A DNA stretch of 5,095 bases from the IMG/VR virus record IMGVR_UViG_2698536369_000016; one strand, 5' to 3'. The stretch comes from a virus (Duplodnaviria; Heunggongvirae; Uroviricota; Caudoviricetes). The position numbers and the translations under genes were made by a program. Under the pieces are notes generated by a model. That model did no database searches. It saw only the letters and a list, made by a program, of their open reading frames with translations, and was not told the origin of the DNA. Positions 3,233-3,567 of the stretch are shown in pieces (position 1 is the stretch's first letter; each line of letters starts with the position of its first letter).

Positions 3233-3239
3233 ATCACCA

Positions 3240-3347
3240 TCAACGGATTGCCCAGACCAGAACAGCAATGGCCACAATACGAATGGCAAAAGCTGCCGCT
3301 CTTGTTAAATCCAGACTGGCTGGCGTCTCCACTTCAATGCCTTTCAT
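3240..3347 (-). CDS. candidate small membrane peptide (35 aa) immediately upstream of Rz
   Basis: ATG at 3347-3345 with GAGG about 10 nt upstream; translation MKGIEVETPASLDLTRAAAFAIRIVAIAVLVWAIR has one hydrophobic helix. Stop at 3240-3242, 8 nt before the Rz ATG. No homolog recognised; it could be chance. Confidence 0.2.
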   Translation of the reverse strand: MKGIEVETPASLDLTRAAAFAIRIVAIAVLVWAIR

Positions 3348-3445
3348 AATGGACAACCTCAGAAAGAATCTTTTATACTTCCTCACAGGGAAAGTACCTC
3401 CCTACCCATAATTTCTCCCTTGCCTTACTCAAGGTCAGAAAACAC

Positions 3446-3482
3446 AAAACCCCGCTTGCTGCCAACAAACGGGGTTTTTACT
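3446..3482. terminator. terminator-like hairpin in the R-Rz intergenic gap
   Basis: 9-bp stem AAAACCCCG (3446-3454) / CGGGGTTTT (3470-3478), 15-nt loop, T-rich on both sides. Confidence 0.35.
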
Positions 3483-3567
3483 TTTATTCACTTAGGTTTT
3501 ACCAGTTTTCAGGATTTCGTGTTATCCACCCGCGTTGGCCAACGTCATTTTTCAGGAAAATATTCTG

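Follow-up and report, generated by a model that had tools for sequence, protein, structure and literature searches.

The question raised by this locus is what occupies the space between the endolysin gene R and the spanin gene Rz in a 5,095-nucleotide (nt) stretch of DNA from a caudoviral genome (IMG/VR record IMGVR_UViG_2698536369_000016; the whole stretch, at its full length, is called the window below). A preliminary description of the window had reported a gap of 335 bp between the two genes, and this measurement is exact: the R stop codon occupies 3568-3570 and the Rz start codon (ATG) 3232-3230, both on the minus strand, so that the gap is precisely 3233-3567. The reading that we favor, with moderate confidence, is that the gap is a conserved accessory cassette lying between the endolysin and spanin genes in a large group of enterobacterial lambdoid prophages. 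In lysis-strand order it contains a bidirectional terminator (3436-3492, a terminator by its design), a leader with two Shine-Dalgarno (SD) sequences and an upstream open reading frame (uORF), and the gene for a predicted 50-amino-acid bitopic inner-membrane protein. Our best guess is that this protein serves as a late-expressed inner-membrane accessory to lysis.

The gap is an insertion. Among 75 genomes of other species that carry an R homologue, 25 have a detected Rz of this family, and in 16 of these 25 the two genes overlap or abut (−19 to +5 nt), as they likewise do in the Qin prophage of Escherichia coli K-12. The GC fraction is 0.43 to 0.46 in the gap, compared with 0.53 to 0.59 in R and Rz. 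The whole 335-bp gap is present in 674 of 5426 complete E. coli genomes, and its hairpin-containing half is present in 2008 of the same 5426, at up to seven places per genome. A scan of viral contigs for the hairpin gave 120 loci, which with the earlier ones makes 128 hairpin-bearing loci, and both R and Rz could be located in 114 of them. Gap sizes fall into discrete classes of ~298, 335, 438, ~490, 642, and ~1425 bp. In all of these classes the same R-proximal stretch and the hairpin come first, followed by one to four tiny hydrophobic open reading frames (ORFs) of three families, famA (PHROG 1115, ~60 amino acids), famB (PHROG 4906, 43 amino acids), and famC (PHROG 6632, 32 amino acids). 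The small ORF of the window (PHROG 4493) is related to famA. The R-proximal spacer, ~75 nt long (3493-3567, minus strand), is 86 to 94% conserved in all gap variants that follow this endolysin. It is kept even in the gap variant of prophage Sp10 of E. coli O157:H7 Sakai, in which homology to the window breaks exactly at the position of the hairpin.

The hairpin itself was described correctly as lying at 3446-3478 with T-runs flanking it on both strands. The antisense RNA forms a stem of 9 + 3 bp; the RNA of the lysis strand forms a stronger structure than was described, with a 15-bp stem that includes G·U pairs, a 3-nt loop, a folding energy of −32.7 kcal/mol in a 101-nt context, and a z score of −3.5. 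The stem has 6 G-C pairs. This GC-rich hairpin is the core of a bidirectional Rho-independent terminator design, with the U-rich tail GUGUUUUCUG (3436-3445, minus strand) following it in the lysis-gene direction and the A-rich lysis-strand tract (3479-3492) supplying the U-tail UUUUUACUUUUAUU in the antisense direction. In the window, 9 of the 12 positions after the stem are U on each strand. All 12 lineages retain the antisense U-tail (8 to 9 U of 12), and the sense U-tail has 9 U of 12 in nine of the 12 lineages and is weakened or lost in the other three. From this design, the element at 3436-3492 is predicted to act as an intrinsic terminator in both directions.

Comparison of lineages indicates what is being preserved. 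The outer stem, AAAACCCCG...CGGGGUUUU, is constant, and the inner stem varies between lineages yet remains complementary. In a 14-sequence alignment, 87% of the cells are paired, compared with at most 61% when the partner is slid, and compensatory changes occur at 5 pairs (14 cells), a value that was matched by 0 of 500 shuffles. The hairpin is under structural selection. A hairpin of the same design, followed by a homologous leader, stands a few bases after the endolysin stop in each endolysin context. In two Salmonella prophages, in which divergent members of the family come after tail-fiber genes, a one-way terminator stands first and a second, symmetrical hairpin follows just before the small gene; in one tail-fiber-context case (L327), the only copy with a downstream terminator, a further terminator follows the small gene. 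An assignment of the hairpin to one strand from its G·U pairs was tried and dropped: in the window type the sense hairpin is 6 to 7 kcal/mol more stable, and in the second type the other strand is at least as stable. Because the order of stability reverses in the second hairpin type, there is no single preferred strand.

The preliminary description had also offered the hairpin as an internal attenuator. One part of this holds, since the terminator is real in design and structurally selected, but it is not a switchable leader: a competing antiterminator fold was looked for and none was found. A fuller version of the idea is that the hairpin, by terminating in part or by acting on RNA stability, reduces the dose of Rz/Rz1 relative to S and R within the late transcript and that the ORF matters only as a translational ramp into Rz. 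It would account for the position of the hairpin immediately behind the endolysin stop codon in at least five endolysin contexts, for the very high stability of the lysis-strand hairpin, and for the coupling of the small-ORF stop to the Rz start. We nevertheless consider it improbable. Q-modified polymerase is terminator resistant, which is established lambda biology, and would ignore such a terminator (PMC7547250); besides the missing antiterminator fold, the leader as a whole folds no better than shuffles (z score +0.49); the amino acid sequence of the ORF, beyond its length, is under purifying selection; and symmetrical A/U tracts are needless for a one-way device. The terminator tR′ of lambdoid late operons, which lies directly after PR′ and is a regulatory target of Q (PMC7547250), is similar in that it too has a canonical GC stem and U-tract inside a Q-dependent late operon. 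The element described here differs from tR′ in lying between two lysis genes, in being symmetrical (bidirectional), and in traveling with the small gene.

The small minus-strand ORF reported at 3240-3347 exists and encodes 35 amino acids from an ATG (MKGIEVETPASLDLTRAAAFAIRIVAIAVLVWAIR). Its length is uninformative, in that an ORF of at least 48 codons was found in 667 of 2000 shuffles of the gap. Because such an ORF arises by chance in a third of shuffles, the case for the ORF rests on comparison with its relatives. Over the core of the protein (codons 14 to 49, 21 intact unique DNA versions), the proportion of synonymous sites that differ (pS) is 0.435 and the proportion of nonsynonymous sites that differ (pN) is 0.100, which is a ratio of 0.23, and the differences are distributed over the three codon positions as 1144/456/2572. 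The other two frames of the core give pN/pS ratios of 1.0 and 2.4. For famA the ratio is 0.12 in frame, and the out-of-frame ratios over the core and famA comparisons together range from 1.0 to 4.3. About 111 of 118 viral-contig copies (~94%) are intact. These values indicate that the small ORF is a real gene under purifying selection. Conservation of the ORF in related prophages, which the preliminary description had named as a check on its proposal, clearly favors the ORF, and the proposal itself, that the ORF encodes a small membrane protein made together with the spanins, is supported to the extent that sequence analysis allows: the ORF is conserved, is selected for its protein sequence, and abuts Rz in E. 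coli and Salmonella prophages.

The gene is annotated as WP_000675931.1 (37 amino acids) by PGAP and as ECs_1094 in Sakai. It matches PHROG 4493 with an E value of 1.3e-22 and also matches PHROG 1115 and PHROG 3246. The homologous clusters (66 and 121) are all named "hypothetical" or "putative transmembrane." Searches of the small proteins against Pfam, NCBIfam, and PADLOC-type collections gave no match, and the PHROG families that they match are function-unassigned. A protein-pattern scan of the species genomes with the small-protein alignment gave candidates that failed tblastn confirmation, the query being so short.

The product is predicted to be of the membrane type, as had been proposed; the 35-residue peptide with a single helix is, on the other hand, likely to be a truncated view of a protein of 50 residues (48 in the window) that starts at a GTG and has a helix-linker-transmembrane (TM) helix arrangement. 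Kyte-Doolittle hydropathy reaches 2.10 over the 19 residues AAAFAIRIVAIAVLVWAIR, which fits a TM helix, and variation within this segment consists of I/V/L/A exchange. An AlphaFold2 model built from a 16-sequence alignment has helices at residues 3 to 18 and 22 to 47, the second with a predicted local distance difference test score (pLDDT) of ~92. In the predicted protein, the N-terminal helix is basic and amphipathic, the linker is acidic, and the TM helix, at the C terminus, ends in RWW. From the basic N terminus we infer, by the positive-inside rule, an N-in orientation. Three residues follow the TM helix, and the protein is without a lipobox. Small TM ORFs of this kind occur in tandem.

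These comparisons also bear on whether the hairpin and ORF are merely left over from module shuffling, as a decaying remnant or a recombination joint with no present function. The nonsense change in the window copy (described below), the frameshifts in some other copies, the TAG stop in famC of Shiga toxin 2a (Stx2a) phages, and the mosaic breakpoints that fall at the hairpin would all be expected of a remnant. However, the coding signature and the compensatory stem changes persist in both E. coli and Salmonella, the ORF is intact in ~94% of copies, and the cassette is present in viable phages; the small-protein family occurs in plaque-forming phages of the PhiR12 series. We give a remnant very little chance of being the correct explanation, since it is already contradicted, and largely refuted, by pN/pS values well below 1 and by the covariation of the hairpin. 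The famC stop lies at codon 8 of the ORF upstream of Rz in the Stx2a-converting phage Stx2_14040 (locus L003, ~2440), and the famC ORF is intact in CP-1639 and in many others.

Several features suggest that the start codon of the small gene (3240-3386, minus strand) is likely the GTG at 3386, giving 48 amino acids in the window, rather than the ATG at 3347, giving 35. The canonical allele has 50 or 37 amino acids from these two starts, ends in RWW, and has its stop at 3234-3236. The 48-residue form scores better on two PHROG profiles (80 bits compared with 59 bits for the ATG form). GTG, ATG, and TTG alternate at the upstream start position among copies, and the residues encoded upstream of the ATG, (R/G)KYKR(F/I)(F/L)LRL, are common to famA of E. 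coli and Salmonella and to distant members, with synonymous substitutions (AGA/CGA and CTG/TTG, for example) in the KYKRxxLRL region. There is also a strong SD (GGGAGG) 10 nt ahead of the GTG. Because some distant members begin at the MKNG position, the ATG is a possible second start. Gene callers probably mis-start this gene, calling 37 amino acids from the ATG instead of 50 from the GTG.

The GTG is preceded by a compact leader (3383-3421, minus strand). It begins with SD1, AAGGGAGA (3414-3421), which is followed by a uORF of 8 codons that runs from an ATG at 3409 to a TGA at 3383-3385, and the uORF stop overlaps the GTG start (GTGA in DNA, GUGA in RNA). The second SD is buried in a hairpin of 5 to 7 bp, AGGGAGGUACUUUCCCU (3387-3403). 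Salmonella copies have the same leader layout; the bases of the loop differ, and the stem is unchanged. E. coli famA copies are without a 23-nt insert and start directly at the first ATG. The leader looks like an arrangement for translational coupling that would fix output at a low level. The GTG start had been overlooked in the preliminary description, as had the change of TGG to TGA at base 3240 and the opposite-strand promoter-like site, both of which are considered below.

At its other end, the gene is joined closely to Rz. The ORF had been said to end 8 nt before the Rz start, but only 7 nt separate its stop codon from the Rz ATG, and in the canonical allele the distance is shorter still. 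The junction (3230-3241, minus strand) reads TGGTGGTGAuAUG in the canonical form and TGATGGTGATATG here. The canonical ORF ends ...CGU UGG UGG UGA u AUG, and its last codons, GGUGGUGA, resemble an SD for Rz. In the window, one G-to-A change at codon 49 creates a premature stop (TGG>TGA, W49*; 3240-3242, minus strand), which removes the conserved C-terminal WW and widens the distance between the stop and the Rz ATG from 1 nt to 7 nt. TGG is present in all three of the complete-genome copies that were read (TR01, GER2, and Sakai); the best matches to the gap among complete genomes are 99.7% identical, and none is 100% identical. In the protein collection, the 35-residue allele is found on 10 contigs, compared with at least 1000 for the 37-residue form. 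An RWW ending also occurs in the unrelated famC ORFs and in many distant family members, and the junction TGGTGGTGAyATG is identical where a 60-residue lipoprotein replaces Rz.

The combination of hairpin, leader, and ORF is not restricted to one endolysin. It follows GH24 lysozyme genes in E. coli and Salmonella and also genes for an M15 peptidase, GH108 and GH19 endolysins, and a 138-residue endolysin; two other GH24 lysozymes also precede the small gene, and these contexts span E. coli and Salmonella. In most cases, cassettes with these endolysin types abut Rz (PF03245). The cassette is portable and modular, occurring with at least five endolysin types.

Taken with the anatomy of the gap, these observations suggest how the cassette might work. 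The terminator would halt ordinary RNA polymerase arriving from either side, and the gene would be transcribed essentially only during lytic growth by Q-modified, terminator-resistant polymerase; the terminator should be read through at that stage because lambdoid late transcription is Q antiterminated. Coupling to the uORF would keep translation low and fixed. Late in infection, the protein would enter the inner membrane and aid envelope disruption, most likely together with Rz or the small lipoprotein. The last codons of the small ORF would form the Rz ribosome-binding site, and ribosomes finishing the ORF would pass on to Rz. A role in envelope disruption is suggested by the constant place of the gene in cassettes with five endolysin types, by its coupling to Rz or the lipoprotein gene, and by the lack of a sense promoter.

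The closest positional analogue that we can suggest is lysA of phage P2, a membrane-protein gene that is flanked by the endolysin gene K on one side and the spanin genes lysB/lysC on the other and that affects the timing of lysis. Both genes are situated between an endolysin and an i-spanin gene, both encode a membrane protein, and both would be accessory rather than core lysis genes. In contrast, LysA is much larger, has several TM segments, and has no Pfam or PHROG link to the small protein, and of the two only the cassette described here has an upstream terminator of its own, a uORF, and a possible antisense promoter. Other small inner-membrane proteins encoded in lysis cassettes, the antiholin S21-71 and the Mu releasin, which regulates a SAR (signal-anchor-release) endolysin, tune lysis. 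The small protein shares their size, predicted location, and setting. It differs from them in having no homology to either and in belonging to a family that also accompanies canonical holins and M15, GH108, and GH19 endolysins, and because the family occurs with canonical holins and non-SAR endolysins it is not a pinholin- or SAR-specific regulator. Nor is it a spanin, because it has no periplasmic domain. For the same reason, an i-spanin-like protein, or a two-component spanin formed by the small protein and the 60-residue lipoprotein, was considered and rejected.

A number of observations weigh against a role in lysis alongside Rz. In ~62 of 118 viral-contig copies, the downstream gene encodes the 60-residue lipoprotein (PHROG 7528) and not Rz. 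Divergent members of the family are found after tail-fiber genes, so that the link to Rz is not absolute. The small protein is essentially without a periplasmic part, and direct contact with the periplasmic domain of Rz is unlikely. A terminator placed after S and R gives the lysogen no protection from leaky holin and endolysin expression, which leaves the logic of an insulator incomplete. No link to a characterized holin, antiholin, releasin, or spanin was detected with Pfam, NCBIfam, or PHROG; all database names of the small protein are "hypothetical," and the function proposed here is a prediction. The family is also narrow: a profile search recovered only 33 clusters (at 50% identity) among 1.84 billion representatives, none of them known. 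Finally, the window copy has lost two C-terminal residues and a few others carry frameshifts, so that the gene is dispensable, at least in defective prophages.

The lipoprotein reads MxRKHWTHRMPR...LVGC... and follows the small ORF in cassettes that have holin_8/holin_3_7 holins and an M15 endolysin (loci L210 to L213, 1616-1798 in the numbering of those loci). An Rz of the window's type was not detected in the cassettes that carry the lipoprotein. In one case, a longer lipoprotein variant (locus L248) ends like the C terminus of Rz. In the tail-fiber context, two tandem small-protein paralogues follow tail-fiber genes at the end of a Salmonella prophage (locus L329, 2805-3168) and are themselves followed by a DUF1353/tail-assembly-chaperone-like gene.

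The slot between R and Rz has other occupants in relatives. A DNA methyltransferase gene is carried there in some, and the LT-II enterotoxin operon occupies the same slot in others; that this operon lies directly 3′ of a phage lysozyme gene was noted by Jobling and Holmes (PMC3252337). Together with the antirepressor gene ant of Sakai Sp10, these occupants make the slot a proven site for morons, and the small gene could itself be a lysogenic-conversion moron that is made in the lysogen from a weak promoter of its own, for example for superinfection exclusion or tolerance of membrane stress, and that is unrelated to lysis. The low GC content of the gap relative to its flanks would fit with this, as would the divergent members that lie after tail-fiber genes and between terminators. 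A moron in the sense of Hendrix and Juhala is expressed in the prophage state, with a promoter of its own ahead of the gene and a terminator behind it (Juhala et al., 2000, as cited in PMC4104026 and PMC3252337). Like a moron, the cassette is extra, lower-GC DNA that carries a terminator hairpin, sits between genes that are adjacent in related phages, and occupies a slot used by accepted morons (the LT-II genes and ant). In contrast to a moron, it has its terminator upstream and not downstream, a sense σ70 promoter is not detectable by consensus scan between the terminator and the ORF in any variant, and the gene is tightly, and by its layout translationally, coupled to Rz. The upstream terminator in particular argues against autonomous expression, and we regard a moron as quite improbable.

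In Sakai Sp10 (locus L220; 1486-2478 and 3020-3068), the slot holds ant and a famB ORF (ECs_1966) and has no hairpin. Just past the end of Rz, the other strand encodes the Hfq-binding small RNA (sRNA) HnrS (EcOnc11), of which the window has no copy. In the LT-II loci (L221, 3287-4424, and L214 to L216), the LT-II A and B genes lie between a GH108 endolysin gene and the small ORF; in this context GAG stands in place of the GTG start, the hairpin has lost its sense U-tail, and the Rz gene is degraded.

The gap also contains a promoter-like site that is antisense to the lysis genes (3350-3379, plus strand; TGGACA, 18 nt, TATACT, 10 of 12 consensus positions). All promoter calls reported here come from a consensus scan. 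Transcription from the site is predicted to start near 3386, opposite the GTG, and to give an RNA of ~3386-3489. Of the 65 unique gap variants, 63 have exactly one promoter-like site; in every case it lies on the antisense strand and points toward the hairpin. No sense-strand site was found in the 65 variants, including the interval between hairpin and ORF; shuffles give 0.4 sites per strand per sequence. Among 11 further loci, which come from other contexts, 10 have the antisense site in the same position and 10 have no sense-strand site. The one locus with a sense-strand site (L333) has it ~180 nt before the ORF and also before the hairpin, and thus outside the interval between terminator and gene. 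The site occurs in three nonhomologous forms, according to which ORF comes first. In the form found in the window and in famA, the −10 element is the reverse complement of the Lys-Tyr codons AAGTATA, which are unchanged in all lineages examined (E. coli, Salmonella, and tail-fiber-context copies). The predicted RNA, of 104 nt, has three stem-loops and a U-tail (z score −3.3), and its sequence would be the exact complement of the two SDs, the uORF, and the start codon.

An extension of our favored reading that is not exclusive of it is that the gene encodes a toxic peptide under antisense control, in the manner of a type I toxin-antitoxin system or of P22 sar. In such a system, a constitutive opposite-strand promoter (3350-3379) would produce an RNA of ~100 nt ending at the shared bidirectional terminator; this RNA would silence leaky expression of a membrane-damaging peptide in the lysogen, and after induction the flood of late transcript would titrate it. 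We find this possible but on balance unlikely. It would explain why the lone promoter-like site is antisense and points at the hairpin, with none in the sense direction; why three nonhomologous versions of the site match different first ORFs; why the −10 element lies over invariant Lys-Tyr codons and the predicted start is opposite the start codon; why the antisense U-tail is kept in all 12 lineages and the sense tail is degraded in 3; why a separate sense terminator stands ahead of the bidirectional one in tail-fiber contexts; and why the predicted RNA resembles an sRNA and the small TM ORFs occur in tandem. On the other side, the promoter is a consensus match only (9 to 10 of 12, 18-nt spacer), and the gap variants make up only three or four independent classes, which makes for weak statistics (p ~0.01 by our own estimate). 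Third codon positions over the antisense promoter are variable at 2 of 21, compared with 9 of 39 elsewhere, an excess of synonymous constraint that is not significant (p = 0.30). The Hfq-CRAC (cross-linking and analysis of cDNA) peaks listed for Sakai in Table S2 of Tree 2014 include none in this gap, and when the window and 10 related loci were searched against Rfam, the sole hit was to the rimP leader, on the terminator, and fell below threshold (24.8 bits, with a gathering threshold of 47). The toxicity of the peptide is putative, and the "toxin" mRNA is without its own promoter, which type I systems normally have. The published sRNAs of enterohemorrhagic E. coli (AgvB, AsxR, StxS, Pas, HnrS, and EcOnc01 to EcOnc64), placed by means of Table S2 of Tree 2014 and the Sakai annotation, were considered as candidates and set aside, all of them being upstream of the holin gene or downstream of Rz.

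The coupling of the gene to a uORF and its buried SD recall mok/hok. Like hok/mok/sok and P22 sar, the cassette is prophage borne, encodes a small hydrophobic peptide with a single TM segment, can be present in tandem copies, and has a buried SD, an overlapping leader ORF, and a short cis-antisense RNA (predicted here) that ends at an intrinsic terminator. It differs from hok/mok/sok in that the TM helix is C terminal, and not N terminal as in Hok, and in that no promoter for the peptide mRNA was found; it has no sequence or Rfam match to these systems or to sar, and both its antisense RNA and its toxicity are putative. A broader proposal is that the endolysin-spanin junction of many enterobacterial prophages holds an unrecognized class of antisense-guarded membrane-toxin genes, which would be locked in three ways, by the upstream bidirectional terminator, by the SD-burying leader with its uORF, and by a constitutive cis-antisense RNA of ~80 to 180 nt that ends at the same terminator, and which would be unlocked only by Q-antiterminated late transcription, adding a new envelope-disruption step beside holin, endolysin, and spanin. 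We regard this generalization as unlikely.

The small ORF is already in databases as a hypothetical protein, with one passing mention in the literature, and the terminator is an ordinary element. Literature searches by accession, locus tag, peptide, and hairpin sequence found no paper that names ECs1094 or WP_000675931, nor did literature searches find a description of the cassette as a unit, of its modular spread, of the GTG start with uORF coupling, or of the conserved antisense promoter-like site. The lysis cassettes of lambdoid and Shiga toxin phages are usually described as holin, endolysin, and Rz/Rz1. In E. coli, an extra structured cassette between R and Rz is widespread, and the one to four tiny membrane proteins that it encodes have been "hypothetical" for more than 20 years. 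The junction hosts LT-II genes, an antirepressor gene, and a methyltransferase gene, and its terminator and any antisense promoter may therefore affect the expression and release of toxin. A role of the small protein in tuning lysis would make it relevant to when Shiga toxin and LT-II are released, and the antisense RNA, if it exists, would be a new prophage-encoded regulatory RNA in a new type I-like module.

The window is a piece of a lambdoid, Shiga toxin phage-like prophage with its late genes on the minus strand. Over positions 1823-4982, its identity to prophage Sp4 of E. coli O157:H7 Sakai is 99.4%. The two ends, 1-115 and 4981-5095, are the same terminal sequence of IS629/IS1203 in inverted orientation, and these insertion sequence (IS) copies cut short the terminase large-subunit gene (113-853) and the class II (pin)holin gene (4789-4974, minus strand). 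The window looks like an IS-bounded, rearranged part of an Sp4-like prophage, and this prophage is already broken by IS elements. The upstream neighbor of the cassette, R (3568-4101, minus strand), encodes a 177-residue GH24 lysozyme with a SAR-type N terminus (Pfam Phage_lysozyme, E value 5.7e-23); endolysins of this type in Shiga toxin phages have been described as SAR endolysins paired with pinholins (PMC8136144). The downstream neighbor, Rz (2765-3232, minus strand), encodes an i-spanin of 155 residues (Pfam Phage_lysis, E value 8.4e-49), and Rz1, with a lipobox and a proline-rich mature part, is embedded in it (2827-3012, minus strand).

A short way downstream of Rz is a gene for a PerC/Pch-family regulator (1986-2300, minus strand; Pfam PerC, E value 3.8e-44), which corresponds to pchA (ECs_1091) of Sakai Sp4; Nu1 and then the truncated terminase gene lie further along the minus strand. 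A small conserved phage ORF of 46 amino acids (2542-2682, minus strand), which matches PHROG 2157 over its full length, is also downstream of Rz, and another of 104 amino acids (PHROG 1853; 4219-4533, plus strand) lies between the holin gene and R, antisense to the late operon. The stretch 2340-2480, between pch and the region downstream of Rz, is very A rich and of low complexity (aaaaacaaaccacgcaaaaacaataaaacaacacacaaaaaaactaaataataaacaaaaataat). A second symmetrical, terminator-like hairpin, AAAAAGCGAC...GTCGCTTTTT, is present at 1923-1950, between a DUF3950/YlcI-family gene (1680-1904, plus strand) and pch.

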